Positions 5,757 through 32,246 of a stretch of DNA of 32,246 nt are shown piece after piece. Each line of letters starts with the position of its first letter. Position 1 is the stretch's first letter. The position numbers and the translations under genes are program-made. This stretch comes from a virus (lineage: Duplodnaviria; Caudoviricetes), in IMG/VR virus record IMGVR_UViG_3300025764_000012, positions 1-32,246 of that record; one strand, 5' to 3'. The notes under the pieces are model-generated. The model was not told the origin of the DNA. It saw nothing but the letters and a program-made list of their open reading frames with translations, and ran no database searches.

Positions 5757-6382
5757 TGGGGGCCGTCTCCGGTTCTGACATCACCGAGGGTAAGATCAAG
5801 AAGGCGCGACTTCCCGCCGACGCCGTGTACTCGGCCGATGCGCGGCTCACCGACGCGCGCACGCCCACCGCGCACACACAGGCGGCCTCGACTATCACCG
5901 ACTTCTCCACCGCCGTCGCGGCACTCATCCCGACCGCCACGGACACGGTTGCGGGCAAGGTCGAACTTGCCACGTCGGCCGAGACGATCACCGGCACGGA
6001 CCTGGCCCGGGCGACCACCCCGGCCGGGGTCAAAGCGGCACTTGGCGACGATGTGACCAGCCTGTTTACGATCATCGCGGCGGGCACGAGCGGATTCACG
6101 ACCACGCTCAGGGCGTGGCGCACCGGCAAACTCATCGCGTGCCAAATCACCGTCTCTGGCACCCCCGCATACGCTGCCTGGCAGTCCCGTCAGATCATGA
6201 CTGTCCCAGTCGGGCTCCGTCCTGGAACACAGGCCGGGGGCACGCTCACGTGGCTCGCATTGACGGCCCCGTTCATGGCCCTGGCAGAGACTTCGGGGAG
6301 CGTGACTATTGGCCGCGATGGCACGTCTGGGGCGTTCCCTGGCGGAGTATTCGCCGCCACCCTCACGTGGATAACCGCGTGA
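5756..6382 (+). CDS. Tail-fibre-like protein
   Basis: TAATG coupling; DARLTDARTPTAHT and AT.TVAG.VELAT.AE...G.D..RA.TPAG fibre motifs; C-terminal P.GLRP domain. Confidence 0.75.
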   Translation: MGAVSGSDITEGKIKKARLPADAVYSADARLTDARTPTAHTQAASTITDFSTAVAALIPTATDTVAGKVELATSAETITGTDLARATTPAGVKAALGDDVTSLFTIIAAGTSGFTTTLRAWRTGKLIACQITVSGTPAYAAWQSRQIMTVPVGLRPGTQAGGTLTWLALTAPFMALAETSGSVTIGRDGTSGAFPGGVFAATLTWITA

Positions 6383-10278: not shown

Positions 10279-10463
10279 GTCCGGTCCACCCGGACGCCCA
10301 ACTCAGCCTCCACGGCGGCCAGGAAGTCGGCGCGGGTGACGCTGATTACCAGGGACCTCTCTCGTCCGGGGATGATCTCGATAGCGACGTCCGGGCCGAA
10401 CCCACCGAACCCCTCGATCGTAACCTTGCGCCGCGTCACCACGCTCTCGATCTCGGTGCTCAT
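10275..10463 (-). CDS. Hypothetical protein
   Basis: ATGA coupling at both ends. Confidence 0.6.
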   Translation of the reverse strand: MSTEIESVVTRRKVTIEGFGGFGPDVAIEIIPGRERSLVISVTRADFLAAVEAELGVRVDRT

Positions 10464-11086
10464 ACTCGTACCCCTTCTCTCTCTGGAACCGTGGCGGGCA
10501 TCGTCTCGAACGAGGCGGGCCCGAGAGGACCCCGCGTAATGCGGGCTACAACTGCGTCCTGGATCTTGTCGGCCGCCGTCGAAGGATTGGTGCTGTCGGC
10601 TAGGCGTTCGATCTCTGCGAACAGCGCGACATCCTGGTCAATCTCGGCCGCTATCTGTGTCCGAACCAGGGCCCCGATGGTGGCATCACGGGCGAGGCGA
10701 GCGCGAAGTAGGTTGACTTGACGTTCCACCTGCTCCAGGTGGTCGGGGTTGACGCAGGGGCGGACACGACAAAGATGGTCAATGTCCAACCCCTCCACGA
10801 GCGGACCCTTCAAGAGCGCATACGAGACGCGATGCGCCAGTCGTAGACTGCCCTGCCATCCCATCCGGCCGTACCCACTGGCGTTCAGCAAGCCGGTCCA
10901 TATCCAGCACCCGGAGGGGTCGATCCGAACGTGAGACATGAGTCTGGCAACGTCATCGCCCCGGATCTGCTGGACCTTGAGGGGGTCGCCGTTCCGCTTC
11001 CAGCGCTCATAGTGCATTACACACCAGCCGCGCTTACGCCCGGGCTTGACACACCCGTCGATCGAGCAGGTCCGTTCGGTCAGCAT
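10460..11086 (-). CDS. HNH endonuclease with fused C-terminal domain
   Basis: CSIDGC..RGWC.MHY, CWIWTG, AHRVSY, IDHLCR.R.CVNPDHLE motifs; C-terminal extension homologous to ORF 17912-18091. Confidence 0.9.
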   Translation of the reverse strand: MLTERTCSIDGCVKPGRKRGWCVMHYERWKRNGDPLKVQQIRGDDVARLMSHVRIDPSGCWIWTGLLNASGYGRMGWQGSLRLAHRVSYALLKGPLVEGLDIDHLCRVRPCVNPDHLEQVERQVNLLRARLARDATIGALVRTQIAAEIDQDVALFAEIERLADSTNPSTAADKIQDAVVARITRGPLGPASFETMPATVPEREGVRV

Positions 11087-12111
11087 CTCACCCTCTCCTT
11101 CTCTAGTACTGCGGCGAGCGTCACGGTTGGAAACATGCGCTCGCCGCGTAGGATAGTGTCACGCTTCGCCCGGTCCCCGTCAAGTCCGATGTACCTCTCG
11201 GTCGTAGCCACGGACGAGTGGTGGAGCATGGACTGGACGATGCGTAGCGCTGAGTCTACACCATCCACGGAGAGCCTGTCAAACAGGGCCCGGGCCGCAC
11301 TACGGCGCAGCGTGTGTACCCCTTCGCGCTTGGTTGCCCCGTCCGCGTCATGGGTGGCATAACCGGACAGCGCCAGTGCCCCCTGAACGGCCTTGTGAGG
11401 GGTGCTGTAGGGCCTGGAGGGCACGTACTGGTCATACTGGACCATGACCCACTTCCCGCCCTCTCCGCGGGCCTCTAGCGTGGGCGGCAGCATGGCCGGT
11501 ACGAGGTAGTCGTAGTCGCGCAGCGAGATCCCCTTGGCGCCCTCGTAGGTATCGAGCCAGAGGTGGAGTTCGTCCGCGAGTTCGTGGCAGATGGGCATGG
11601 TGTCGGACTTGGCCGACTTGGGCACGAGAACCTGGATGGTGAACTCCGTGAGGTCCACATCGCCAACGCGCAACAGCGCGATCTCCCCCGCGCGCAGGAG
11701 CAGGTACAGGCCCAGGGCAACGACGATGCGGTCGCGGGGGTTCTGCGCCGAGTCGATGAGTCCGGGGAACTGGTCGGCCGGTACGCGCATCCGCTCGTGC
11801 TTGGCCTCGGAGTAGGCGCGCCGGTGGCGCATGGGCGACGAGCCGTAGGGGATGTGCCCCTGCTGCTCGCACCACTTGAAGAATCCGCGGAGTTCGGCCA
11901 CCGTCAGGTTCGTGGTCGTGGCGGCATGGTCTGAGCGGTAGGCCCCAAGGGCGTGGTCGAGGCTGGTTGACGTGATGGACGTGACATCCTCGCCAAGGAA
12001 GGGGGAGAGGACGGCGAAGGCCCGGCGCGTATTGCGCATGGTGGTCCCGGCGTACCCCTGACCCTCTCGTGACGTTAGGTATGCGGCCTGGACATCCCTT
12101 ATGGTGCTCAC
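11080..12111 (-). CDS. Tyrosine recombinase / integrase-family protein
   Basis: Catalytic R (LLRAGEI), K (PKSAK), HxxR (HTLRR), H and Y (LHHSSVATTERY); SAM-like N-terminus. Confidence 0.92.
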   Translation of the reverse strand: MSTIRDVQAAYLTSREGQGYAGTTMRNTRRAFAVLSPFLGEDVTSITSTSLDHALGAYRSDHAATTTNLTVAELRGFFKWCEQQGHIPYGSSPMRHRRAYSEAKHERMRVPADQFPGLIDSAQNPRDRIVVALGLYLLLRAGEIALLRVGDVDLTEFTIQVLVPKSAKSDTMPICHELADELHLWLDTYEGAKGISLRDYDYLVPAMLPPTLEARGEGGKWVMVQYDQYVPSRPYSTPHKAVQGALALSGYATHDADGATKREGVHTLRRSAARALFDRLSVDGVDSALRIVQSMLHHSSVATTERYIGLDGDRAKRDTILRGERMFPTVTLAAVLEKERVRC

Positions 12112-13498: not shown

Positions 13499-13533
13499 AG
13501 GTGGAGCGTAGCACCGTCCATCCGTTGCGTCAA
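13499..13533 (-). promoter_or_regulatory. Housekeeping-sigma-type promoter
   Basis: TTGACG-17 nt-TACGCT-6 nt-ATG on the minus strand. Confidence 0.7.
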
Positions 13534-13937
13534 GGGGTGTCTCTGCGGGCGGCGTAAGAGCGAAGTACGTTGACTCGATGCGTGACCTGCTCCAGGTGGG
13601 CGGGGTTGACGCACGAGCGGACTCGGCAGAGGTGATCGATCTCCAGGCCCTCCAGGAGTGGTCCCTTCAAGAGCGCATACGAGGCGCGATGTGCGCGCAT
13701 TAGGAGGCCGCGCACCCGCACCTGACCATACCCCTTGCCCCTAAACGAGCCGGTCCATATCCAGCACCCGGAGGGGTCGAATCGAACGTGGGACATGAGC
13801 CGCGTAACGTCGTCAGTGCCCCGCCTGGGCTGCCCGGGGCGCGGATCGCCGTGCCGCCACCAGCGTAGGTAGTGCATCCTGCACCAACCGCGACCTTCGA
13901 GCGGCGCGGTACATCCGTCAATCGAGCAAGTGACCAT
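13530..13937 (-). CDS. HNH endonuclease (paralog 2)
   Basis: Same motifs as 10460-11086; start chosen by alignment with the 14178 copy. Confidence 0.9.
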   Translation of the reverse strand: MVTCSIDGCTAPLEGRGWCRMHYLRWWRHGDPRPGQPRRGTDDVTRLMSHVRFDPSGCWIWTGSFRGKGYGQVRVRGLLMRAHRASYALLKGPLLEGLEIDHLCRVRSCVNPAHLEQVTHRVNVLRSYAARRDTP

Positions 13938-14177
13938 CCCTGGATGGTACTCCCCCCTGACCGTTGCGCGCGTCTGTAGGTACTCCGAGAGGTGAGTACA
14001 CCTAACAGTGTCCTTGTAACTGCTCTTACTATACACGGGGCACCCTTAGAGTGCCCCGTATGGTAGGTAGTTACTACGTGGTAAAGGCTACAAGCCTGAG
14101 TGTACACGACCCCGACCGTTACGTAGCGGGGCTACCTCACTAGGGTCGCAACGGCCAAGGGGTAGTACCATCCGGGG

Positions 14178-20907: not shown

Positions 20908-21599
20908 GTACGGGCCAGGAGAAGTACGTCAGCATGATCCTTGCTGCCGCTCGGCGTGCTGCCGGACAGGTGGCCCCGCGCTTCCCTGGCCTGCTCTCCT
21001 ACGCGGACGCGGTACAGGACTCAACCGAGTGGCTACTGCGGCACCCCGAGAGGGTGCACCACCACACGCTACCCGATGGTACGTTCGGCGGGATGCTCTC
21101 GGTGGAGTGCGCGGGTCAGGTTGCCCGCTCGACGTACCGCTCCAGCGCTCGCGGAAGGGTCGCCCCGGTCACGGAGGACACCTACAGGTACGGAAAGGCT
21201 GTCGTTGAGATGGCGCTGCCCGGCGTGTGGGAGCCCGAGCACCAGCCGCTGGGACGGTTGCCGATGGAGCACAACTCCACCCGCTCCGACCCGGCTGTGG
21301 GCGGGGACTGGCGCGCCATCATCGCAGACGTTCAGCGTGCGGTGTCCGCGGTGACCAGCGCCACCGAGAGGAAGGTGCTGCTCCTGCGCTCGGTCCTGGG
21401 ACAGGGCTGGGATGACATCGGATGGTCCCTGGGCGTCTCCGGGTCCACGGCCCGGCGCCGGTACTCCGGTGCGATCAGCGTCATCCTCGACTTCCTCAAC
21501 GGTACGACAGAGGAGGCCCGCCGCGAGGTCGAGCCGACTCGTCGCGTGATAACCAACGCTGCCGCTCGGGCGATGACAGAGCACGAATGGGACGGGTGA
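20904..21599 (+). CDS. Sigma-factor-like transcription regulator (region 4 HTH)
   Basis: D..Q...EWL; ADV.RA; ER.VL.LR...G....DI...LGVS..T.RRR...A...I.D.L.G. Confidence 0.72.
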   Translation: MSTGQEKYVSMILAAARRAAGQVAPRFPGLLSYADAVQDSTEWLLRHPERVHHHTLPDGTFGGMLSVECAGQVARSTYRSSARGRVAPVTEDTYRYGKAVVEMALPGVWEPEHQPLGRLPMEHNSTRSDPAVGGDWRAIIADVQRAVSAVTSATERKVLLLRSVLGQGWDDIGWSLGVSGSTARRRYSGAISVILDFLNGTTEEARREVEPTRRVITNAAARAMTEHEWDG

Positions 21600-21600
21600 C

Positions 21601-21768
21601 GTGAGGGGCGTCGGGTCCGTCCTGCTCGTCAGTGTCGTGTCCTTTTACCCAACCCCCTGGGACGAACTGCTTAACTTCTACCACTATGAGACCGACTTCC
21701 GGTTCCTTCTCAACCGCATAAACCGCCCGATCAGGGTAGGAATCTATGAGGAGGCAGCGGGGCGATGA
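21601..21768 (+). CDS. Microprotein array member 1 (55 aa, MRGV...)
   Basis: Hand-translated; begins 1 nt after the sigma-like stop; TGA overlaps the next ATG. Confidence 0.55.
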   Translation: MRGVGSVLLVSVVSFYPTPWDELLNFYHYETDFRFLLNRINRPIRVGIYEEAAGR

Positions 21769-21929
21769 AGAGCGTCAACGTGACTACCGCCAGTACAATG
21801 TATCCCTATCCAACACGCTCGGGGATGTGGGAAGCGTTCGCGGGCCCCGTCCCGCACCGCATGGCGGTCTTTGTTCAGCAGATACAGCATCCAGTTGTGG
21901 CGGAACTTTACCGGGCGGTAATGCGATGA
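21765..21929 (+). CDS. Microprotein array member 2 (54 aa, MKSV...)
   Basis: GGAGG RBS; ATGA overlaps at both ends. Confidence 0.65.
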   Translation: MKSVNVTTASTMYPYPTRSGMWEAFAGPVPHRMAVFVQQIQHPVVAELYRAVMR

Positions 21930-22078
21930 AGACCGTGAAGTGGGCCATGACAACCTCGTCCTCCTCCCCCGTGGGGTGGGAACAGAGAAACGGGATCTAC
22001 GCCGAGCCGGGGCAACTAGTTACCCACTTCTGGTTGCGCATTACCTCTCACCTCATGGGGGCCCTGCGCGATGAATAG
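21926..22078 (+). CDS. Microprotein array member 3 (50 aa, MKTV...)
   Basis: ATGA coupling. Confidence 0.6.
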   Translation: MKTVKWAMTTSSSSPVGWEQRNGIYAEPGQLVTHFWLRITSHLMGALRDE

Positions 22079-22226
22079 CGTGTATTCCGACGTCTGCCTC
22101 GGACAGAGGCTGTCCCTATATGGGGTGCCGATCCGCCTATGGCACCTTGATTGGGACGTTCGCCCCCTGGCCCTTGAGGGGATATCAGGTACCATCTATG
22201 TAGCAATCGTCTGGCCCGAGCAATGA
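22071..22226 (+). CDS. Microprotein array member 4 (51 aa, MNSV...)
   Basis: 8-nt overlap upstream; ATGA overlap downstream. Confidence 0.6.
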   Translation: MNSVYSDVCLGQRLSLYGVPIRLWHLDWDVRPLALEGISGTIYVAIVWPEQ

Positions 22227-22411
22227 AGAGCGTATTGCGCGACATTCGTACCCCGGGAATCTTGGTGATGAACGCCGTATCACCGCACCTATGGTACGTT
22301 GCGAATATCGGCGGCGGCACCGGTTCCCAAATCCAACTGTCCATCCAGGGCGCAATAGTATGGGCCGCCGTGGATCAGGCGGCCGCCCTACGGGAGGTAC
22401 CCTCCTCGTAA
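22223..22411 (+). CDS. Microprotein array member 5 (62 aa, MKSV...)
   Basis: ATGA coupling. Confidence 0.6.
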   Translation: MKSVLRDIRTPGILVMNAVSPHLWYVANIGGGTGSQIQLSIQGAIVWAAVDQAAALREVPSS

Positions 22412-22427
22412 CCTCCGTAGAGACACG

Positions 22428-22476
22428 GAACCCCCCACCTAGGTCCTAGCGGGCCAAGATGGGGGGTTCGTTCGTT
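22428..22476. terminator. Terminator-like hairpin between convergent units
   Basis: GAACCCCCCA...TGGGGGGTTC outer stem, inner GGTCC/GGGCC stem, followed by GTTCGTT. Confidence 0.6.
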
Positions 22477-22518
22477 AGGGGGGCTCCTGGGGGGCATCCA
22501 GGGGCATCGTAGGCCCCG

Positions 22519-22758
22519 TCAGGGGGCCACTCCGATGTATGGGTGGTCCTGACAGGTGTACTCGCCCGGCTCGCAGTAGTTCGGGCACTGCTGGCCCCGG
22601 TACGATCCGGGGACGGTGGCCTCGCAGCGGCTCGCCGGTGAAGTGTTCCGAATGGACCAGTATTCAGTCTCGGTCAGGATGATGCCCTCGGATGGTCCGC
22701 CATATGGGTGTATGGTGAGCCACCACTCCGGGCCGTCTACGTGCGTGTCAATGTCCAT
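22519..22758 (-). CDS. Hypothetical protein with C-terminal Cys/His finger
   Basis: AAGGAG RBS; C...G.QC.N......C..H. Confidence 0.65.
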   Translation of the reverse strand: MDIDTHVDGPEWWLTIHPYGGPSEGIILTETEYWSIRNTSPASRCEATVPGSYRGQQCPNYCEPGEYTCQDHPYIGVAP

Positions 22759-22904
22759 AGTTTCTCCTTGATTACGACGATACAGTTAAAGCATAGGAAC
22801 TCCGTCCCTGCGAGCGCGCTCCATATCCTCCCCTCCCCCAGGGGAAGGGTGTCCACCGGATAGAACGGAGCAACCGACCACACCTTGCCCTTTACACTCC
22901 TCAT
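22737..22904 (-). CDS. Microprotein (55 aa, MRSV...)
   Basis: GGAG RBS; ATGA coupling. Confidence 0.6.
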   Translation of the reverse strand: MRSVKGKVWSVAPFYPVDTLPLGEGRIWSALAGTEFLCFNCIVVIKEKLWTLTRT

Positions 22905-23068
22905 TCCGTACTCCAGTCCGACCAGAGCGGCTGGAAGATATCGGCAATAGGAATCCACAGGAGCATACCCAGGTCACGTTCGTCGGCCCAGCGGGACCGC
23001 AGTAGGCGGAGATATGCCGCGCCCTCGACGTATGTCAATTCGAGGTGGGCCGACGATATCCGCTCCAT
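22901..23068 (-). CDS. Microprotein (55 aa, MERI...)
   Basis: Starts 1 nt after the upstream stop; coupled downstream. Confidence 0.5.
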   Translation of the reverse strand: MERISSAHLELTYVEGAAYLRLLRSRWADERDLGMLLWIPIADIFQPLWSDWSTE

Positions 23069-23069
23069 C

Positions 23070-23369
23070 CTACTCGCCAACCTTCTCGATCTGTCCGACG
23101 GCGGACGCGACACGGATGATCGTGCGCGGGAAGTCCGCACCCAGTTGCCACTTCGCGGCGGCGCCCTGCGTGGCGCTCAGGCCGTAGGCCCATGACAGGG
23201 GGCCGTCCTTGACGACGGTGAGGAACCACTCGCGCTCCAGCAACGTCTCGTATGCCCTGGACAGGATGGCACGAGCGAGCGAGCGGCTGTCCTCATACTC
23301 GGAGGACTCCAGCAGTTCCTCGATGGCGGCGATCTCGTTGCCGCGTGGTGTGACGTGCGGGATGGTCAT
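23070..23369 (-). CDS. Hypothetical protein
   Basis: GAGGAGG RBS; GC3-rich codons. Confidence 0.75.
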   Translation of the reverse strand: MTIPHVTPRGNEIAAIEELLESSEYEDSRSLARAILSRAYETLLEREWFLTVVKDGPLSWAYGLSATQGAAAKWQLGADFPRTIIRVASAVGQIEKVGE

Positions 23370-23391
23370 GGGTCCTCCTCTGGTAGTTCTA

Positions 23392-23427
23392 GTGCCCGGG
23401 CGCCGATCTGTGAGCGCACGCCCGGGC
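23392..23427 (-). repeat. 36-nt intergenic hairpin repeat, copy A
   Basis: Identical to 27473-27508; 9-bp stem GCCCGGGCG/CGCCCGGGC. Confidence 0.9.
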
Positions 23428-23434
23428 TGTTGGG

Positions 23435-23851
23435 TCAGTCCTGGACCATCCTGATCTCGTCTGCCTGCTCGCGCTGACGGGAGATCGTGTATGTACCGGC
23501 CCCGATGCCCGCGTACCCGTGCTCCGGGTGCGCCTGGTAGACGGTGGCGCCGACGGGGACGGTCAGCGTGCCGAGGACCAGCGAGCCCTCGGTAATGGTG
23601 GCGGCATCGAAGAACCCGCCCGGGAGGAGCAGGTGCGTGTTGCCACCCACCTCGCCCTTGACGACGGCGACACCCACGGCCGGGATCGGCGTGGTTGCCG
23701 GGGCCTGGTCGGGAGCCGGGAGGATCAGGGTGTCGCCCTGGGCCTGGGGCCCGGTCAGGACCGGGATGGTCGCCTCGCGGCTCAGGTGGTCATCCACCTG
23801 GACACCGAAGCGGGTGATGGCCTCACCGATGGTGAGAGTGTTGCTCTGCAT
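23435..23851 (-). CDS. Conserved protein usually adjacent to DUF6745 genes
   Basis: QGD..I.P, GE..G.TH.L, H.EH..I..G.Y....QRE......V.D. Confidence 0.75.
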   Translation of the reverse strand: MQSNTLTIGEAITRFGVQVDDHLSREATIPVLTGPQAQGDTLILPAPDQAPATTPIPAVGVAVVKGEVGGNTHLLLPGGFFDAATITEGSLVLGTLTVPVGATVYQAHPEHGYAGIGAGTYTISRQREQADEIRMVQD

Positions 23852-23895
23852 GTTCGTGCCCTTCTTGTTGGTACTGCCGGGACTCTATTATGGTA

Positions 23896-24411
23896 TCACG
23901 CGCGACGCTGGAGCGTCGCGTAGACATCAGGACTCACACCATACCCCCATGCGGCCGCCTCACGCAAGGCGACTCGCGCGATGCGCTTGGCTGCGTTCCG
24001 AACGACGGAATACGAGACGCCGTACTCGGCGGACAGTTGGGCGATATTGCCATTCCCGTTCCCGATCTTCCCGGGACGGTAGCGCAGCGCGAGGTCCCGC
24101 GCAACGCTCAGCGGCACGACGGTGTTCACGCACCGGTCCATGAGGACCGTATCGAGAGCATTGTCCCCAGTCGTGCCGAGATAGAGGTGCCCGATATTCA
24201 AGCACTGGCCGTTACCGCACCGGTGTAGGACCTTCATGATTCCCGGGTCTCCCCGGGCGATCCACCACACGGCGCGACTGGCGTTCATGTCCCGGCCGTC
24301 CAGTTTGTAGGTGGGGCGCTTTGAGCGGCCAGCCTCGACGCACTCGACGGTCTCGGCCCGGGCCCCCGCATAGACGAGTGCCCGGAACGCTCCGTTGCCC
24401 CGCTTCATCAC
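23896..24411 (-). CDS. HNH endonuclease-like protein fused to a DUF6745-type C-terminus
   Basis: ASR.VW, VLHRCGN..C.N..HL.LGT..DN..D; HTH-like segment; ends AAAWGYGVSPDVYATLQRRA. Confidence 0.8.
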   Translation of the reverse strand: MMKRGNGAFRALVYAGARAETVECVEAGRSKRPTYKLDGRDMNASRAVWWIARGDPGIMKVLHRCGNGQCLNIGHLYLGTTGDNALDTVLMDRCVNTVVPLSVARDLALRYRPGKIGNGNGNIAQLSAEYGVSYSVVRNAAKRIARVALREAAAWGYGVSPDVYATLQRRA

Positions 24412-25505
24412 GCCCGCCGCTCGATTTCCAGGTACTGCTCGCGGGTCACTCCGTACGTCCAGGCGGCGGCGGCGATGGGGTCATCGATGTCGGCAGGAAC
24501 TGTTAGGCCGAACTTCCTACGCACCCCGCCCCGTTCCGTTGTCCCATTTGTCACGAGAATAACCCGCACCGGTTCATCGTAGATGGCCGCTGGCACGTCG
24601 TAAAGGGTGATAGTGCAGCCCGGATTGCCTGGATCATCCACCACCTCACCGACCTGTGCCAACTCGGCCTCGACCACGAACTGATCCCAGCCCAGCCGTT
24701 CGATGGCGCTGCGGCGAACCTCGGCGTTCGGCTCCTGGAGGATGCGGGTGGTGTCCCACTCGCCCCGGATCATCTCGGCGGGCACGCGCGTTCCGTGCCA
24801 CGAGTAGAGGGCGAAGCCATCCGCGTACTCGATGGCGGGGCCGTCTGCGTTATGGAGCCGCTGCTGCGGGTCCAGGTGGAGCGCCGTGGGGCGCTCGGTG
24901 AGGATGATGGCCCGATCGAACGGCCACCACCATCCACAACTTTTCGCCACGCGGATCAGGCCGGACAACTTCTCCGTGCCCTCGACGGGTACAACTACCC
25001 GGAAGTAGTCGTTGAAACTGAGCCACCCCGCATCGTGCTGCCCGTAGGCTGCCGAGCGGACCTGCTCACGAATGGCCGACTTGGCGCCGTTGCGGGCAGT
25101 CGTGGTCATCCCGGCCCAGACCTCCGAGAAGGTCGGGTAGTACTTGCCCTTGCCGATGACGGCCATGATGCGTTCCCAGACCTCCGGGTAGCGCTCGTCG
25201 TAGTCCTCTTCGACGTTCGAGATCAGCCCGACCGTATCATCGACGGCAACGGTGCCCGCAGCGGCCTCCTCGGCCAGTGACGAGGCCAACATCCATGCCC
25301 CGATCGCACCCATCATGGGGGAGTCGAGCCAGATGATGCTCTCGGGCTGGTCGAGCCGGGCGATGGTGTACGCCTCGCGGGCGCCAGCCTCCGCCTCTTC
25401 GCGGTCGGCTCGATCGGTACTCAGACCGATCTTGAGCCACATGTCACGGTGCGGTTCCAACGCCGCCTCCTGCCCTGGCGTCAGTTCTGTAATCTTCTCA
25501 GCCAT
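24408..25505 (-). CDS. DUF6745-domain protein
   Basis: GQHDA.WL, CGWWWPF...ILTERP..LH.D...RLH..DGPA..Y.DG..LY.WHG..VP, E.NAEVRR. Confidence 0.82.
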   Translation of the reverse strand: MAEKITELTPGQEAALEPHRDMWLKIGLSTDRADREEAEAGAREAYTIARLDQPESIIWLDSPMMGAIGAWMLASSLAEEAAAGTVAVDDTVGLISNVEEDYDERYPEVWERIMAVIGKGKYYPTFSEVWAGMTTTARNGAKSAIREQVRSAAYGQHDAGWLSFNDYFRVVVPVEGTEKLSGLIRVAKSCGWWWPFDRAIILTERPTALHLDPQQRLHNADGPAIEYADGFALYSWHGTRVPAEMIRGEWDTTRILQEPNAEVRRSAIERLGWDQFVVEAELAQVGEVVDDPGNPGCTITLYDVPAAIYDEPVRVILVTNGTTERGGVRRKFGLTVPADIDDPIAAAAWTYGVTREQYLEIERRA

Positions 25506-25686
25506 ACCCCTCTTCTCCCTCCGTGGTGGACTCGATACTGAACGAGTGTACGGTACCTTCGATCACGATGTCAACAGCACCGCGGGTCGCGGCCTGGGCG
25601 ACTCTGCGGTACGTGTCGCTGGGGATGACCCATTCCCCGCGTGGGTTGTCGCCCACGCGCGCGATGCGCAGGTCGTAGGTGGACAT
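25498..25686 (-). CDS. Hypothetical protein
   Basis: GAGG RBS; 62 aa. Confidence 0.5.
   Translation of the reverse strand: MSTYDLRIARVGDNPRGEWVIPSDTYRRVAQAATRGAVDIVIEGTVHSFSIESTTEGEEGYG
25545..25574 (-). promoter_or_regulatory. Promoter upstream of the DUF6745 gene
   Basis: TTGACA-18 nt-TACACT on the minus strand, inside the upstream ORF. Confidence 0.6.
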
Positions 25687-25703
25687 CCCGGCCTCTTTCA
25701 TCC

Positions 25704-25859
25704 CTACACCTCGTCCAGTACGGCGTCAATAGTCATGGTCTGCGGCAGGAAGCCGAAGTCCCAATCGCCCTGGTTCAGGACACGGCTAGAGATCAGGTAG
25801 TGACCGCCGTCCGCTGGCAGTAACTCGGCGTCGAACCGGGACAGCCGGACCTGGATCAT
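25704..25859 (-). CDS. Hypothetical protein (51 aa)
   Basis: ATGA coupling; MIQVRLSRF. Confidence 0.5.
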   Translation of the reverse strand: MIQVRLSRFDAELLPADGGHYLISSRVLNQGDWDFGFLPQTMTIDAVLDEV

Positions 25860-26029
25860 CGCCCTACCCCACGAACATGGGCGGCGGTAAGTTCTTGTCG
25901 GAGGTTTATCCACTCCGCGACGCGCAGGACGTCGCACACCAACCCGTAGGGGATCTCAGGGATCACCAGGGTGGAGGAGGGAACGAACGCCGTTCGTGCA
26001 TCGTATATCGCCAGGTTGACGCCCTCCAT
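25856..26029 (-). CDS. Microprotein (57 aa, MEGV...)
   Basis: Starts 1 nt after the upstream TAA; coupled downstream. Confidence 0.5.
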   Translation of the reverse strand: MEGVNLAIYDARTAFVPSSTLVIPEIPYGLVCDVLRVAEWINLRQELTAAHVRGVGR

Positions 26030-26030
26030 C

Positions 26031-26180
26031 TTATCGCCGTATCTCGGCGCCATCAAGATACGGCGGCATGGACATGCCGCCACGGTTCGGGGCCAGCCAG
26101 AGCGCCAGGAGCAGCGCGAGGGCGATCAGGAGGATCGCGCACACGGCGCGGCCACGACGGGTGAGCCTAAGGACGGTCAC
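26031..26180 (-). CDS. Small membrane protein (49 aa)
   Basis: Hand-translated: MTVLRLTRRGRAVCAILLIALALLLALWLA; basic N-terminus plus a transmembrane helix. Confidence 0.65.
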   Translation of the reverse strand: MTVLRLTRRGRAVCAILLIALALLLALWLAPNRGGMSMPPYLDGAEIRR

Positions 26181-26350
26181 GGCTGCACCCGGCCCTCTAG
26201 TGTGTGCTCGATCCTACCGAACACCCGCGCCACCGGGATCAGGGTGCTGCCCTGGTAGCACAGCACCCATACATGATCCGCGACGCGCGTGTTTTCGAGA
26301 TAGGCGATTGCATGGGGACGCTTCCATGTCTCGTGCCGAACACTCCTCAT
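26177..26350 (-). CDS. Microprotein (57 aa, MRSV...)
   Basis: ATGA and GTGA overlaps. Confidence 0.55.
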   Translation of the reverse strand: MRSVRHETWKRPHAIAYLENTRVADHVWVLCYQGSTLIPVARVFGRIEHTLEGRVQP

Positions 26351-26526
26351 GCGGTCACGCTCACGAGCCATGCCGACGCGGGGGTGCCGGTCTCGAAGTC
26401 CTGCCAGAGTCTAAGGTTGACCTTACATGTGGCGCACAGGTACACGCGCAGTTCGCGGACCCACCACAGGTGCTCCCAGGGGCCCGGGTGGGCGCTACAT
26501 GCGGCACAGGCTGGCGGATAGGACAT
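26347..26526 (-). CDS. Small CxxC...CxxC protein
   Basis: GAAGGGG RBS; CAAC...CATC. Confidence 0.55.
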   Translation of the reverse strand: MSYPPACAACSAHPGPWEHLWWVRELRVYLCATCKVNLRLWQDFETGTPASAWLVSVTA

Positions 26527-26562
26527 GACGCCATCCCCTTCGGTTTGTTGGGTTCCTACCAA

Positions 26563-26598
26563 GTGCCCGCGTGGCCGGACAGTGAGGACCGCGCGGGC
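26563..26598 (-). repeat. Variant 36-nt hairpin repeat
   Basis: GCCCGCGCGG-TCCTCACTGTCCGG-CCACGCGGGCAC; same length, ends and loop motif as copy A. Confidence 0.7.
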
Positions 26599-26610
26599 GA
26601 TGTGCGTTGC

Positions 26611-26994
26611 TCAGTCGGTCACCTCCCCCTTCTCGATGAGGACGGCCGTGGGCGAGAGCCGCGAGGTCCGCGCGTTGCCGCGCCAGCCGATCACGTCGTT
26701 GCGGTTGATCGGCTGTGCACACTGACGGGCAGCCTGGACGGTGAACGGCGGCGCAGGGTTAGCCAGGTACATGTGCGATCCGTACTCGACCGACGGCTTG
26801 AGCGGCATCAGGTGTTGCCATCCCTCGCTGTCGGAGTACTGGAACGTGCCCCACAGGTTGGTCTCCGGGTCGCGGTAGGTTAGGTAGCCGCCCATGTGCC
26901 CCGGTGTGCGCCACACCTCAAACCCGGCATCGGCCAGGGTCCGAGCATAGGCGGTCAGGTCTTCCTCGTCCTCGGTGGTCTTCTCGGTGTTCAT
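26611..26994 (-). CDS. Hypothetical protein
   Basis: AAGGGA RBS; 127 aa with GC3-rich codons. Confidence 0.75.
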   Translation of the reverse strand: MNTEKTTEDEEDLTAYARTLADAGFEVWRTPGHMGGYLTYRDPETNLWGTFQYSDSEGWQHLMPLKPSVEYGSHMYLANPAPPFTVQAARQCAQPINRNDVIGWRGNARTSRLSPTAVLIEKGEVTD

Positions 26995-27045
26995 GGTGCT
27001 TCCCTTCTCCCGGGGCTCGTCGCCCCATCTCGGTGCTACTCTGTA

Positions 27046-27074
27046 AGTGTCCCACGTCTGGTGGAACCTGTCAA
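27046..27074 (-). promoter_or_regulatory. Putative promoter
   Basis: TTGACA-17 nt-GACACT in the intergenic gap. Confidence 0.5.
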
Positions 27075-27138
27075 GCGTGTAGCGTGTCGCGCTTCCGGCG
27101 CGTGCACATGACGCGGACGAACAAGCGTAGGTGCCAGA

Positions 27139-27435
27139 TCAGCACGGGAGGTCTCCGACATCCTCGAAGGTCGGGGCGCCGGTAAAGATATGCTCGTCCC
27201 CCATGACGGCGCGGATAATCTGGTCGTCGGTCGCGTCCACCCCGCGGGGGTGACCCTCTGAGAGGCACATGGTTGTACTGTTGAGAGACACGCAGGCCCG
27301 AACGGCGCCGCTGGAGCGTTCGCGGATAACGGCAGTGACGCTCGGCTCATCCCAGCGGTCCCCTAGACCCCGGCTCATGTGAGCGATTCCGGCAGTCCTG
27401 CGCTCCACGGTGAAGCGGTTGACGCTAACAGTCAT
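27139..27435 (-). CDS. Hypothetical protein
   Basis: GGAAGGA RBS; 98 aa. Confidence 0.6.
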   Translation of the reverse strand: MTVSVNRFTVERRTAGIAHMSRGLGDRWDEPSVTAVIRERSSGAVRACVSLNSTTMCLSEGHPRGVDATDDQIIRAVMGDEHIFTGAPTFEDVGDLPC

Positions 27436-27472
27436 GATCCCATTCCTTCCCTAGCGGTTGGGTAACCCTTAC

Positions 27473-27508
27473 GTGCCCGGGCGCCGATCTGTGAGCGCAC
27501 GCCCGGGC
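27473..27508 (-). repeat. 36-nt intergenic hairpin repeat, copy B
   Basis: Identical to 23392-23427. Confidence 0.9.
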
Positions 27509-27515
27509 CACCGTG

Positions 27516-27824
27516 CTAAGCAAAGTGCTGGCGGCATTCCCCCGGTTCGTAAGAGTAGTGGTGGGGAGAATCGCACTCGGGACAAGTGCGCTCGGTGGCG
27601 GGCTCCTCCTCGTCATAGGCGCCACCGTCCACGACGACGCCACCGTGGCGCAGGGCCTCACCCTGCGCGGTGTCGCGGTCGAGATACCAAAGTGGGGCCC
27701 CGCCCTTGCCCTTCGCCACCGCCCCATCTCGGCGCTGGATCATATAGTGCACGGGCCAGGTCCCGACGATGCCGGGGTGACGGGCGCCGGACGAGTCGAT
27801 ATAGGTGCAGCGTTGCGCGGTCAT
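27516..27824 (-). CDS. Hypothetical protein with C-terminal CxxC
   Basis: ATG follows the upstream TGA; CPECD.PH......C..H. Confidence 0.55.
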   Translation of the reverse strand: MTAQRCTYIDSSGARHPGIVGTWPVHYMIQRRDGAVAKGKGGAPLWYLDRDTAQGEALRHGGVVVDGGAYDEEEPATERTCPECDSPHHYSYEPGECRQHFA

Positions 27825-27825
27825 G

Positions 27826-28368
27826 TCATGCCCACCATGTATAAGCGTGCCGTGATCCGTCGAGGGTACACCCGCACCCGTCGCACCGATTCCGGGACAT
27901 TTCGCGTGTCTCGCACCCGGTCGAGTGACTATCGGAATCAGTCTCCCAGTGATCCGGGATGCCACAGTCTAGGCCGACCGTTGCATCGGTGTCGGGCTCA
28001 AGGGACCACGGGACGCACGCGGGGTTACACCCGCACGCCTCGCGGCCACGCTCGCCGGTGTCGCGTGCCAGGTAGCACGCGACACACACCCACAGGACAC
28101 CCTGAGCGGTCGGGCGTCGTCGCCCCATCTCGGTGCCCTCTTGAACGTCGGGCGCGGTGATCCATGCCACGATGCCGGGGTGCTTGGCACTCACGGCCGT
28201 GGTCGCGTATCCCATCGCCCGGAGTTGTCCGAGCAGGTCCCGAACCGTGGCAACGGGCACGCGGCCCGGTAGCACGGTCTTCAACTCGGCCGGAGTGTGC
28301 GGAGTGTCACAGAGACAGCGGTACACTTGGCGCTGGGCGCCCGTCAGGTTCAGTAGGTCTATCATCAT
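27826..28368 (-). CDS. Winged-HTH-like N-terminus fused to a Cys-rich domain
   Basis: LT..QR.VY..L.....T..EL........TVR..L..L...GY, then WVCVAC...CDGCG..L.G.RH. Confidence 0.6.
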   Translation of the reverse strand: MMIDLLNLTGAQRQVYRCLCDTPHTPAELKTVLPGRVPVATVRDLLGQLRAMGYATTAVSAKHPGIVAWITAPDVQEGTEMGRRRPTAQGVLWVCVACYLARDTGERGREACGCNPACVPWSLEPDTDATVGLDCGIPDHWETDSDSHSTGCETREMSRNRCDGCGCTLDGSRHAYTWWA

Positions 28369-28439
28369 CCCATCCTTCCATCATGTCCGGTATCTGCCAG
28401 ACTCCACCCGGTACGGTCGCCCGCACCGGATGGGGCTTG

Positions 28440-29066
28440 TCAGACTCCAGCGTAGTACGTGGGCACCAGGTCGGTCGGGGGAAGCGTGACGCTAGTCCGA
28501 CTCCCCGGGTCACCCTGCCGGTGAACCTCCAGCAGCACGGTGGCGGCAGGCCCGACCGTCTCGCGGTTGTAGGTGACTGCCCAGCGCGAACCTGGGGACA
28601 GTTCGATCACGTCGCCCGGCCGCAGATAGCGGGCCAGGATATTTCGTTTGTCGTCGCCCCATCCCGGTGCCGTAGCGTGAGCGGCAGCCGCGTAGGCGTG
28701 GAGGTCGAACTCAGGTTCGGCGTGCCGCACGGGTGGCAGCGGGTCCGGGCCGACTAGTTCGCCCTCACCAATCACCAGCGCGATGGCTTCCTGGCGGTAC
28801 ACGCGGGCCAGGTCTCCGATCTCTGCGCGCAGCCACTCGGCGTCGCGTTCCTGGCCCCACGTTGTGCCGTACCGGGCGATCTTGGCAGAGTCCTCGACTA
28901 CGCCGCCCCACTCTCCTACGCCGTAGTGGGACTCAAGCCGCCCCGCGCCAGTTGTGGCATAGGCTAGGACGGTGCGCACGCGCCTCTGGAGCGCTTCCCA
29001 GTGGTTCGCGCTCATGGGAGCGCCCGCTATGTTGCGGCCGACCGTTACAGTGATTGTAAGTGTCAT
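28440..29066 (-). CDS. Hypothetical protein
   Basis: GGAAGGAATGAGG RBS; TV.VGRN....PM...W, G.GEW.G..E.S, Y.QEAIA. Confidence 0.7.
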   Translation of the reverse strand: MTLTITVTVGRNIAGAPMSANHWEALQRRVRTVLAYATTGAGRLESHYGVGEWGGVVEDSAKIARYGTTWGQERDAEWLRAEIGDLARVYRQEAIALVIGEGELVGPDPLPPVRHAEPEFDLHAYAAAAHATAPGWGDDKRNILARYLRPGDVIELSPGSRWAVTYNRETVGPAATVLLEVHRQGDPGSRTSVTLPPTDLVPTYYAGV

Positions 29067-29084
29067 GTCCTCATTCCTTCCCTC

Positions 29085-29154
29085 AGTGGCGGGCTCATCA
29101 GCGATGGGATGCCAGCCCATCGGACTAGGGCCACGGCCCTAGTTTCGCCTCACT
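29085..29154 (-). ncRNA. Hammerhead ribozyme (type II, open stem II)
   Basis: Minus strand reads AGUGAGGC-GAAA-CUAGGGC(CGUG)GCCCUAG-UC-CGAUGGG(CUGGCAU)CCCAUCG-CUGAUGA-GCCCGCCACU. All core nucleotides and three stems are present. Confidence 0.93.
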
Positions 29155-29156
29155 TG

Positions 29157-29444
29157 TCAGAGATCCTCCCCGCACGCATCGCACGTCTCGCCGTTCGAGT
29201 CGGACGAGTGGATCACCTTAGGGAAGTCCCCCGAGTCGAAGGTACGCTCGTCGTCGCGGTCGATGCCGAACCCTGCCGCTAGTTCTGTCAGGTTGTCTTC
29301 GGCTGGCATGTGGGTGAGATCCTCCCACCCATCGAACGGCTCACCCTCGCCCGTGGGTAGCGCGATCAGGGTGCACGCCGGGCAGAGTATTTCTGCTTGG
29401 AACGTGTACCCAACGATCTCCCATGCCTTGCGCCCGTATCCCAT
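29157..29444 (-). CDS. Hypothetical protein
   Basis: IVGYT..AE..CP.C, D..DE.TFDSGDFPKVI, CD.CG..L; GGAAGGA RBS. Confidence 0.75.
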   Translation of the reverse strand: MGYGRKAWEIVGYTFQAEILCPACTLIALPTGEGEPFDGWEDLTHMPAEDNLTELAAGFGIDRDDERTFDSGDFPKVIHSSDSNGETCDACGEDL

Positions 29445-29514
29445 GATGCCGTTCCTTCCGTTGTCGTTGACCTTCCATCGCGGCGCACGGTCGCCCGCGC
29501 GTCGCGATGACGTG

Positions 29515-30273
29515 TCAGCGCTCGAACGTGCTCCACCCGTGCTCGGCATGTCCCGTAGTGAACAGGTCGCCCGCGATGCGGTCAGCAAGCGCTGAGGTAG
29601 CGGTGGCGTAAGGCGATGCCACTAGCACCGCGTAGACTGCCCCTAGCAGCGTCGTAGCAGCCTCGGTTAGATCGTAGCGGTAGTTGCCATGCCGGATATG
29701 CTCGGTCACGGTAAACCGGTTCGGCGTGGGGGTGTCGTCGGTCACGCGAGCCGCGCGGATCTCAGTCTCACGCTTAGCGAGATCCTGGCACGCGGCGCAC
29801 TTGCAACGGACATATCCGGCAGGGTAGTCGAGTGCGTTGAAAGGTTCGGCCGCGTATGCACTGGAGTCGAGTCGGTCGGCCGCGTCGCGGATCTCGGCGT
29901 GCTCGCCGTCGGTAGCGTCATACGCGGGCACGTCGAACGCGACGCTAGGGCGACGCGCTATCTCTGCTAGTGCAGCATCGCCGCGCGCGGTCCCTGCCCA
30001 CTGGCTCGCGTAGCGGCCCAGCGCGTCGCCGTTCAAGTCTGCGGGGTTGATACTGGCGACCCGTCGCGCCTCGATAGCGCGAAGCGCTGCGCGTGTCGTG
30101 GTGGGAATGGGTGCCACTAGCGCGGCGTCGGCCGCGTCGCTCCGGTCCTGCGCGCTACGTCCGGCGTTAGCCTGCGAGTGGATGAGCGATGCTAGTCTCT
30201 CCTTGCGTGTCCAGCGTCGGTCGGTGTCGGCCTGGTTGCGCCCGGACTGCCAGGCGATGTCGTTGTAGGTCAC
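29515..30273 (-). CDS. Hypothetical protein (Ala/Arg-rich)
   Basis: GGAAGGA RBS then GTG; 252 aa. Confidence 0.65.
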   Translation of the reverse strand: MTYNDIAWQSGRNQADTDRRWTRKERLASLIHSQANAGRSAQDRSDAADAALVAPIPTTTRAALRAIEARRVASINPADLNGDALGRYASQWAGTARGDAALAEIARRPSVAFDVPAYDATDGEHAEIRDAADRLDSSAYAAEPFNALDYPAGYVRCKCAACQDLAKRETEIRAARVTDDTPTPNRFTVTEHIRHGNYRYDLTEAATTLLGAVYAVLVASPYATATSALADRIAGDLFTTGHAEHGWSTFER

Positions 30274-30353
30274 GGTTCGATCCTTCCCTAGTCGTGATGC
30301 TTGCGTGCCCGCCCAGGACTCGATCCTGGGAGTGTGCCGCTCGGGCGGTGGTG

Positions 30354-30626
30354 CTAGGCGCGGGTGTCGAACCGCTCGACGTAGGCGCGGGCAGACTCGA
30401 CAGTGTACGTGCCGGTAAGCAGCGCGGCCTGCTTATTTGCGAGACTACGCGAGCCCCACTGGTCAAGCCATGTGCCGTATTGGTTGCGCACGACGTAGCG
30501 GTAGGTGCCCGTCGTGCCGGTCTCGACGTCGCCGTCGGGCTCGCGTGTCACGGTGTAGGAGACGGGGAGGGCCTCGCGCTCGGCCACGCGGATACGGTGG
30601 GCGATGTAGTAGTCGTTGCTGTTCAT
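30354..30626 (-). CDS. Hypothetical protein
   Basis: GAAAGG RBS; 90 aa. Confidence 0.65.
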   Translation of the reverse strand: MNSNDYYIAHRIRVAEREALPVSYTVTREPDGDVETGTTGTYRYVVRNQYGTWLDQWGSRSLANKQAALLTGTYTVESARAYVERFDTRA

Positions 30627-30704
30627 GGTCTCGCCTTTCGTTTGTCGTGCGGCTGAGAGTAGGGACACGGCGCGCGGCCTCAGCCGTGCGCCATGCTCAG
30701 GCGC

Positions 30705-30896
30705 TCAGTCACTCATGGGTGGGTAGCACTCGTCCCAGGTTAGGACGTGCGGTGCGGGGGCGATGGGGCGCGAGCCGCATGACGTGCAAAGCGGGGAGCC
30801 GTTCGGCCCGCGCCACTGTGTTAGCACGCGGCAGGAGGAGCACCGGAGCGAGAAGTCTGCGCGGACCATTCGGCCTATTACTGTGTCGTGCCACAT
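30705..30896 (-). CDS. Small CxxC...CxxC protein
   Basis: GAAGGGG RBS; CSSC...CTSCG. Confidence 0.5.
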   Translation of the reverse strand: MWHDTVIGRMVRADFSLRCSSCRVLTQWRGPNGSPLCTSCGSRPIAPAPHVLTWDECYPPMSD

Positions 30897-31049
30897 GATG
30901 CATCCCCTTCATTTGTCGTGCCCGGTTCGATCCTGTGTCCTCGACGTGTGGGGCACTCCATTCCGTATGCGTTCGGGATACGGGGAGGAGAGGAACCACT
31001 TCCGCTAGACCTGATCGTCTAGGTACGGTCGCCACGTCTACGTACTTGC

Positions 31050-31720
31050 AAGGACCACACTGCCAGCACTGCGCCAGGGGTGCAAGTCCATAGGGCGTGT
31101 CAGCGTGTGATCTTGGTCACACAGGGCAACCTTAGTTAGGACGCCCTTACATGGGCAGGGTGGACGTGCTGCTGCTGCTGCTGCCATGTGTGTGCATCGC
31201 TATGCAGTCGAGTGCATACGCATACGGTAGGACTGTCGGCGTAGTAATGCAAGACACAACTGCCTGATCCTGCCCACTACACACACATACAGACACACAT
31301 GCCCACACATAGCACAAGGTTAGCCTATCCTAACCTTGTGCTCCCTTGACTATGTGCGCAGTCATGCTCTAGGGGCGTGAGCGCGAGCAGCGAGCCCCCC
31401 GGCGAGCGCGTCGAGCGCTCATCTCGACCCGGGGGTTGTTAACTTGACCCCTCCTGTACTTGAGGGTACTGTCCCACGATGTGGTACGTGGGGATACGCC
31501 CACCCCCTCTGACCTGCACGTATGGTCCTACCCTAAAACCTTCACAGAACCTACACATGATAACTGGTATCGCCGTCAGATATTTCATGGATACTAAGGG
31601 TGGGGGGTAGTGAGCGAACGCAGTGAGCGAACGGGGGGAGAGCGTAGGGCCCTCTAGGGAGGGCCCCTACGCGACAGGGGGGTAGCAAGTGCCCCCTCAA
31701 GGGGCACTTGCGTAGGGGGG
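31050..31720. other. Non-coding control / possible genome-terminus region between divergent units
   Basis: No ORFs in the track; lower GC; CA- and GCT-rich low-complexity tracts; several inverted repeats; AGTGAGCGAACG direct repeat. Confidence 0.6.
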
Positions 31721-31721
31721 G

Positions 31722-31750
31722 TTGACACCCACCTGCTCACCGGGTACGCT
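31722..31750 (+). promoter_or_regulatory. Rightward promoter
   Basis: TTGACA-17 nt-TACGCT. Confidence 0.7.
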
Positions 31751-31802
31751 CCCGGGTGACCTGTCCTGAGAATCGGGACATCGAGACACCTGGGGGAAGA
31801 CC

Positions 31803-31940
31803 ATGCTCACCATCATCCTGCTCCTCATCGCCGCTGTCTGCTTCGGTCTTGCCGTGCTGAACGTGGCGAGCAAGATCAACCTCATCGCGCTGGGGCGGTT
31901 CTCCTGGGTTCTGTCCGTCCTGGTCCCCCTGATCCACTGA
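31803..31940 (+). CDS. Small two-helix membrane protein (45 aa)
   Basis: Hand-translated: MLTIILLLIAAVCFGLAVLNVASKINLIALGRFSWVLSVLVPLIH; GGGGGA RBS. Confidence 0.6.
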   Translation: MLTIILLLIAAVCFGLAVLNVASKINLIALGRFSWVLSVLVPLIH

Positions 31941-31974
31941 CACCTTCCGGCCTGGGTGTGATAGGATGTGTCGT

Positions 31975-32124
31975 ATGAGACACGCGACACGCAACCCACC
32001 CGGGCGCTCGGAGCACATCTTCGTCCACCGGGTCCTCGAACTGGCCGGAGAGGCCCTGTACTTCGCGTGGTGCGCGGCCTTCACGATTGTCCTCATCGGC
32101 TGGGCCCTCACCGCGGCGGGGTAG
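31975..32124 (+). CDS. Small membrane protein (49 aa), possibly leaderless
   Basis: TAGGAT 7 nt upstream of the ATG; C-terminal hydrophobic helix. Confidence 0.45.
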   Translation: MRHATRNPPGRSEHIFVHRVLELAGEALYFAWCAAFTIVLIGWALTAAG

Positions 32125-32246
32125 GGATAGGATCTAGTCGTACCCCGGTGGACCTGCCGCACATCTGTTGGTGGCGGGCACCGAGGTCGTCGGGGAGACG
32201 GGCAAGTGACGCCCGCAGCGGCCTAGAGACGCGCCCGACCCGTCCC

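Follow-up and report, generated by a model that had tools for sequence, protein, structure and literature searches.

A putative type II hammerhead ribozyme between two genes of a leftward operon in an uncultured peat phage

Structure and Setting of the Motif

The minus strand of this peat phage carries, at positions 29149-29087, a motif that by its sequence is a type II hammerhead ribozyme with a complete core (positions refer to the window, the whole stretch of 32,246 nucleotides that was analysed). The likeliest reading, consistent with the strand and spacing statistics, is that it would cut a polycistronic mRNA: the leftward multi-gene message would be cleaved in cis into two hairpin-capped pieces, a reading to which we give a probability of about 0.6.

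The virus record, a linear contig from peat, is 51% complete and has a GC content of 64.6%. It belongs to an uncultured phage and contains genes for capsid, tail, integrase, helicase, and primase. Since the helicase and the capsid protein find their best matches in Streptomyces phages (47% and 40%, respectively), the host is presumably actinobacterial. The ribozyme lies near the right end of the record, within a leftward run of small genes, and the transcript is presumably early, to judge from gene content and layout.

From 5' to 3', the elements follow each other in the order stop codon of the upstream gene P0001, GGC, GAAA, stem III, UC, stem I, CUGAUGA, GCC, C, GCCA, Shine-Dalgarno sequence, and ATG of the downstream gene P0002. 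The stop codon of P0001 ends at 29157, 8 nt ahead of stem II, which is open and consists of three pairs (GGC, 29149-29147, with GCC, 29094-29092). The core segment GAAA (G12-A13-A14-A15.1, 29146-29143), which does not vary among the 42 copies that were aligned, leads into the stem III hairpin (29142-29125), where 29142-29136 form seven Watson-Crick pairs with 29125-29131 around a 4-nt loop. According to the hammerhead consensus, cleavage is predicted 3' of C17 in the GUC triplet (29125-29123), i.e., between 29123 and 29122. The stem I hairpin (29122-29102) has seven pairs, 29122-29116 with 29102-29108, and a 7-nt loop. It is followed by the core segment CUGAUGA (C3-U4-G5-A6-U7-G8-A9, 29101-29095), which is invariant, bar position 7, in 78 of 78 relatives, as the scanner demanded. 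In the tail after stem II, GCCA (29090-29087) can form a four-pair pseudoknot with UGGC of loop I (29114-29111). A fifth position, 29110/29091, is an A·C mismatch here and is paired in 60 of the 78 relatives. A purine-rich stretch at 29080-29075, 8 nt before the P0002 ATG at 29066, is the likely Shine-Dalgarno sequence.

The core positions C3 U4 G5 A6 N7 G8 A9, G12 A13 A14 A15.1, and U16.1 H17 are unaltered (criteria as in the methods of PMC3088659), and the core-adjacent pairs 1.1-2.1 (C-G), 10.1-11.1 (G-C), and 15.1-16.1 (A-U) are present. Stems I and III are loop-closed and stem II is open, which is the type II permutation. The core segments, the GUC triplet, and the predicted cut 3' of C 29123 had all been placed correctly in an earlier note on this DNA, in agreement with Rfam and covariation, and the 7-bp stems I and III that it described are found on the minus strand. 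A 226-aa open reading frame starting at an ATG inside stem I (29120) was rejected as the true downstream start because it has no evident Shine-Dalgarno sequence and the alignment with homologues begins at the 29066 ATG.

Detection and Reliability of the Sequence

The letters of this stretch are reliable. Contigs from four peat runs, two of which are perhaps the source sample, cover 28950-29540 with 0 differences, and a contig from a fifth run covers 28481-29226, again with 0 differences. An assembly error is thus excluded. These contigs confirm the letters, not the range of the element, because all come from one year and one habitat and two may be the source itself.

Our own descriptor matched once in the 32-kb window, both strands included. 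After dinucleotide shuffling, a type II match with at least five pairs in stems I and III was found in 0 of 300 sequences and any loose match in 12 of 300. The Rfam model RF02276 (Hammerhead_II) aligns over its full length (model positions 1-66 of 66, window 29084-29150), with an E-value of 6e-5 on a 451-nt stretch and 1e-6 for the whole record. In this Rfam comparison, a check proposed in the earlier note, the score of 32.8 bits stays about 4 bits under the gathering score of 37 bits, a curation threshold and not a structural feature. The low score, like the short pseudoknot of 4 bp, counts against an active ribozyme. In two relatives, the same threshold is passed, at 38-42 bits, by six of nine scanner matches (L179) and by five of nine (L180).

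Weak matches (E <= 1), none of them above the cut-off, also occur in 6 of 14 control genomes, and the sub-threshold score would suit a random match in GC-rich DNA. This explanation is refuted by the shuffled sequences, by the E-value for the whole record, and by homologues, as BLAST look-alikes among cultured phages comprise 35 Streptomyces and 13 Microbacterium records; its probability is close to nil. Streptomyces phages carry the nearest look-alikes.

At the gathering threshold, Rfam gave 0 matches in the whole window, and an E-value scan of 21000-32246 gave 0 matches, the ribozyme itself included. Default and wider scans missed it because its score lies below the cut-off; blank scans of this kind are hence weak negatives. 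Other ribozyme classes were sought in narrow scans of 29400-31300 and 26400-28500, which returned only chance-level microRNA and snoRNA rows. The ribozyme is a single copy in the 51%-complete record: no second hammerhead was found in the window with the descriptor or with an unfiltered custom model, whose next score was 12 bits.

Relatives and Covariation

A narrow motif pattern was found in 134 viral stretches in 5 of the 64 parts of IMG/VR, from which about 1600 are estimated overall; a pattern made from the loop and tail of the peat-phage copy gave 64 matches. From 264 distinct copies, those whose stem I hairpin measures 21 nt (78 copies, from 45 loci) were aligned without gaps, and 186 were omitted for length. 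In these 78 relatives, 98.7% of the stem I cells are paired and two-sided changes occur at seven of seven pairs. For the loop I/tail helix, 81.5% of the cells are paired, a share reached in 0 of 500 shuffles, compared to 69.1% after shuffling and 13-56% in slid controls, and one position shows an exchange of U-A and A-U. The complementarity of UGGC and GCCA, seen earlier as a plausible tertiary contact, is supported by covariation of the pseudoknot, although the 4 bp of the peat phage are one short of its closest relatives. Because the set is biased by the search pattern and by kinship (related Streptomyces phages), these figures are supportive and are not to be read as probabilities.

The motif is retained in a diverged peat contig (a single contig of depth 5.1) that has 12 differences over 77 nt. 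There, the pair at the top of stem I, 29116/29108, is changed from G-C to A-U, a compensatory exchange, and the contig continues into a P0002-like start, as judged by eye.

The earlier note had also described a bulged extension of open stem II (AGUG, 29154-29151, with CACU, 29088-29085), which did not hold up in the comparison: the extension is possible in 8 of 78 relatives compared to 5.1 expected, a count reached by 62 of 500 shuffles. Since bases 29088-29087 are common to both, the extension and the pseudoknot are mutually exclusive.

Predicted Folding

In four sequence contexts, stem III is predicted with a pair probability of 0.99-1.0, and stem I mostly with 0.7-0.98, the minimum being at its first pair. 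Stem II reaches only 0.02-0.11 in the longer contexts, in nearest-neighbour folding that is blind to pseudoknots. The competing AGUG/CACU helix, which contributes 3.7 kcal/mol to the core fold, rises up to 0.68 if the upstream open reading frame is kept unpaired. Both the weak stem II and this competitor argue against efficient cutting.

Such a competition could also serve as a switch. Either the AGUG/CACU helix, which overlaps the pseudoknot, or a ribosome that terminates 8 nt before stem II begins would compete with the active fold, so that cutting would depend on the translation of P0001; alternatively, cutting would free the ribosome binding site. The gain of 3.7 kcal/mol would suit this, as would the position of the stop codon within the ribosome footprint of stem II, both in the peat phage and in its relatives (median of 8 nt from GAAA). 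Against a switch, the extension is unconserved, and opening the Shine-Dalgarno sequence costs 2.9-5.1 kcal/mol after the cut compared to 1.3-5.5 kcal/mol before it. As there is no consistent gain, access to the ribosome binding site gated by cleavage was rejected, and we regard a switch of either kind as improbable.

With these reservations, the ribozyme very probably folds with the pseudoknot of loop I and the 3' tail, and cleaves. In the family analysed by Perreault et al. (2011; PMC3088659), cleavage takes place 3' of H17 and is accelerated by the pseudoknot, and 14 of 18 consensus hammerheads cleaved. In another type II ribozyme described there, the reaction became about 20-fold slower when the pseudoknot was shortened from 6 to 4 bp.

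Position between Genes and Arrays in Related Phages

The position of the motif between genes was compared in the 229 of 295 copies with enough flanking sequence, using the opposite strand and 1145 random places as controls. An open reading frame stops at most 25 nt before GAAA in 165 of 229 copies (opposite strand, 36; random places, 134 of 1145). A Shine-Dalgarno sequence and a start codon follow within 45 nt of the core in 150 of 229 (25 on the opposite strand; 176 of 1145 random places). Both features together are found for 122 of 229 copies, compared to 4 of 229 when the opposite strand is read and 26 of 1145 random places. The peat-phage copy, 10 nt from the stop and 28 nt from the start, is close to the medians of its relatives (8 and 28 nt). 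The packing between a stop codon and the next ribosome binding site, already seen in the earlier note, is thus the norm of the family.

Many relatives carry several copies. Those of Rfam grade number nine in Streptomyces phage Diane (within 14.5 kb), nine in phage R4 (within 15 kb), six in L179, and five in L180. R4 and Diane (Arquatrovirinae) are the closest cultured look-alikes and have the same packing of stop codon, ribozyme, and ribosome binding site in a leftward arm, but they each have nine such copies in the 14-15 kb examined, whereas the peat phage has one. As these Streptomyces phages can be cultured, mutants with a dead ribozyme are feasible.

Some observations concern the annotation of these phages. 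None of the nine hammerhead copies in the right arm of Diane is annotated, and one of them (L200, 9285-9348) ends 14 nt before a gene for an OCR-like antirestriction protein. In R4 (L201), the annotated tiny genes gp60.1, gp67.1, and gp75.1 overlap Rfam-grade type II hammerheads at 5763-5846, 8126-8218, and 11074-11175; they are doubtful because of this coincidence and are probably not genes. A further copy falls inside the 5' part annotated for the OCR-like gp72, the start of which has probably been placed too far upstream. The relative L079 (393-5789) carries 16 type II hammerheads of Rfam grade within 5.8 kb. Back-to-back pairs of hammerheads about 70 nt apart are present in L137 (minus-strand scan positions 965 and 1039), L156, L168, L174, L177, and L190; such pairs would free a small RNA whose two ends are both made by ribozymes.

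Flanking Genes and Sister Phage

The upstream gene, P0001 (29444-29157, minus strand), encodes 95 amino acids with no known function (phrog_7422). There is no hammerhead behind its homologues in Microbacterium phage Squash and L002, and a conserved link between the ribozyme and this gene was therefore rejected.

The downstream gene, P0002 (29066-28440, minus strand), encodes a protein of 208 amino acids, of which residues 1-105 are predicted to form a SAM-lyase-like domain with a PII/ferredoxin fold. The domain model has a pLDDT of 95.7 and a PII-like ferredoxin fold, and its top Foldseek match is the phage SAM lyase 6ZM9 (E = 2.7e-5, TM 0.60, 17% identity). In VIA-align, model and lyase superpose with a Z score of 8.2-8.3 and an rmsd of 3.1-3.2 Å over 99 residues, values tied with those of generic ferredoxin folds. 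The domain belongs to a family of 378 representatives; of the 150 that were listed, 100, picked by length, were aligned. In the 101 aligned sequences, G49/G51, W53, E58, and Q92 are invariant or nearly so. As a sequence pattern, they resemble Gly56, Tyr58, Glu69, and Gln104 of Svi3-3 (PMC7877911). The glycine, aromatic, glutamate, and glutamine residues may likewise correspond in pattern to those of T3 gp0.3 and the SAM-AMP lyases (PMC7877911, PMC12255297), whereas P0002 differs from the phage SAM lyases by its 17% identity and an additional C-terminal part of about 100 amino acids. PF23780 is weakly matched by 10 of 101 family members (best E-value 0.001), P0002 itself has no Pfam match, and when PDB sequences were searched with P0002 or the derived profile, CutA alone was returned (E = 0.2-1.2). 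Scans for close relatives of P0002 and P0005 in viral contigs, as well as a search of shorter proteins, gave no match. P0002 may well have SAM- or SAM-AMP-lyase activity. The family of its domain (window 28752-29066, minus strand), called hypothetical in Microbacterium phages, looks like an unrecognised SAM-lyase-type family.

No hammerhead was found upstream of a P0002 homologue in the three loci examined, so a conserved link with this family was also rejected. A sister phage (L231) shares both the upstream hairpin and the downstream gene but lacks the ribozyme. The 395-nt slot holding P0001 and the ribozyme is replaced there by a 64-codon HTH-like open reading frame that overlaps the downstream start by ATGA, and in a co-occurring peat relative by 212 other letters. 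The ribozyme is therefore dispensable for a P0002-type gene in close kin: it is an optional, swappable cassette and is not essential to this phage group. Both the sister phage and the absence in the three loci weigh against a processing role tied to this gene.

The same observations could mean that an intact or slowed block of ribozyme and ribosome binding site arrived by gene swap and is neutral here. The single copy, the replaced slot in both relatives, and the fact that P0001 homologues elsewhere have other elements, or nothing, behind them would agree with a passenger. On the other hand, the core is unmutated, the stems are perfect, the spacing is typical of the family, and one diverged relative keeps the motif with a compensatory change. 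A neutral passenger is thus considered unlikely.

Putative Role in Transcript Processing

P0001 and P0002 lie on the same strand, and neither a terminator nor a promoter was found between them in a consensus scan, a weak test. They probably share one transcript, and the cut would therefore occur in vivo. In the nascent leftward transcript, stems III and I would form, stem II and the pseudoknot would then dock, and the RNA would be cut at 29123/29122. The upstream RNA would end in the stem III hairpin with a 2',3'-cyclic phosphate, and the downstream RNA would start, 56 nt before the P0002 start codon, with the stem I hairpin, whose first base is paired and would bear the 5'-OH. Folding predicts a terminal hairpin for both cleavage products. 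Type II is the only permutation in which both new ends are closed by a hairpin, and for this reason we lean towards a host-independent processing site that would provide P0002 with a 5' end that is defined and protected, together with a ribosome binding site of its own, and would not be mainly a trigger of decay or a translation switch. Hairpin-capped RNA ends would be expected to resist exonucleases, which favours maturation or insulation over decay.

The contrary outcome is that the cut exposes the transcript to host nucleases and so limits or times one of the flanking genes, like glmS but without a ligand. A highly expressed SAM-destroying enzyme could damage the infected cell, and in Gram-positive bacteria, degradation follows once glmS has been cleaved (PMC6765202), a precedent that speaks against maturation. 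However, the hairpins predicted at both new ends do not suit decay, and relatives carry 9 to 16 copies between consecutive genes. Since each of these precedes a ribosome binding site, the layout suits maturation better than destruction, and decay is rather unlikely.

Processing of long transcripts was proposed for the same layout by Perreault et al. (2011; PMC3088659), who described the type II architecture and clusters in prophages. Tandem prophage hammerheads cut native transcripts of about 2 kb in vitro and in E. coli, the 5' end of a halovirus transcript lies at most 3 nt from a hammerhead cut site, and ardA is found downstream of hammerheads (PMC3088659). The peat-phage element is a further member of this published type II family in its usual setting, and the layout has been known in phages since 2011. 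It shares with RF02276 members the permutation, the short stem II, the full core, a pseudoknot of at least four pairs, and the place between phage genes. It differs in being a single copy 4 bits under the cut-off, of an actinophage-type subfamily (loop UGGCAU), and with predicted activity. The clustered prophage hammerheads near ardA (Agrobacterium, Legionella) are described as having the same proposed processing of long transcripts, with a ribozyme directly before a counter-defence gene, but there, two or more copies flank the genes instead of one. In the peat phage, the downstream gene is predicted to be SAM-lyase-like, and the link is not kept in the sister phage. New beyond the published cases are the pair of sister phages with and without the ribozyme at the same junction and its site directly before a predicted anti-defence enzyme, nothing else.

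A functional analogy alone is offered by the RNase III sites of the T7 early region and by the synthetic insulator RiboJ, which also cut just before a ribosome binding site and leave a defined, hairpin-capped 5' end. T7 processing requires a host enzyme, and RiboJ is engineered.

A 2019 review describes the role that self-cleaving ribozymes play in bacteria and phages as largely elusive (PMC6765202). Type II and III hammerheads have been predicted in Mycobacterium genomes (PMC4524478). No paper on hammerheads of Streptomyces phages or other actinophages was found in the open-access literature, and Streptomyces had no match in the portion of the supplements of Perreault et al. (2011) that was searched, the type II list being maybe outside it. 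A link to inhibition by aminoglycosides was dropped, as the relevant part of PMC9239200 cites hammerheads just as a known target and reports no effect on S. coelicolor phages.

More tentatively, a type II hammerhead with its ribosome binding site might be a natural, portable insulator, giving counter-defence genes a context-independent, nuclease-resistant mRNA without a host enzyme. It would be swapped into gene junctions, replacing translational coupling or RNase III-type hairpins, and would serve SAM-lyase-like genes (peat phage), OCR-like genes (Diane), and ardA elsewhere. If so, the peat phage and L231 would be a natural pair with and without the insulator, and the role of phage ribozymes would be directly testable in the culturable R4 with its nine copies.

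Other Elements of the Operon

Other gaps of the same operon contain, directly after stop codons, a long hairpin capped by CGG-GYGA-CCG (minus strand of the window, 29513-29466 and 28433-28402; L231, 3002-3053 and 3751-3800; L002, 3298-3350). The five copies from three phages have 13 pairs, 7 of them with two-sided changes, and z is about -3.7 in the window. The narrow scans of 29400-31300 and 26400-28500 gave no Rfam match for this hairpin, and a pattern search for intergenic GNRA hairpins gave one true match in 50 loci. It is a candidate RNase III-type processing or stabilising element.

An identical 36-nt inverted-repeat element is located in two intergenic gaps (23392-23427 and 27473-27508); in its L231 copy (about 4229-4262), both stem arms are changed and the loop is kept, as judged by eye. 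A 16-nt motif occurs four times on the minus strand (27033, 27732, 28133, and 28667), mostly within open reading frames. It is also present in L231 and, in a related peat contig, behind the P0001 homologue, and is possibly an operator or a recombination site. The window further contains three HNH endonuclease genes on the minus strand (10460-11086, 13530-14036, and 23896-24411), two of which adjoin the integrase region. Upstream of the leftward operon, the region 31250-31750, with few open reading frames, inverted repeats, and short purine/pyrimidine repeats, is likely a promoter, origin, or genome-end region.
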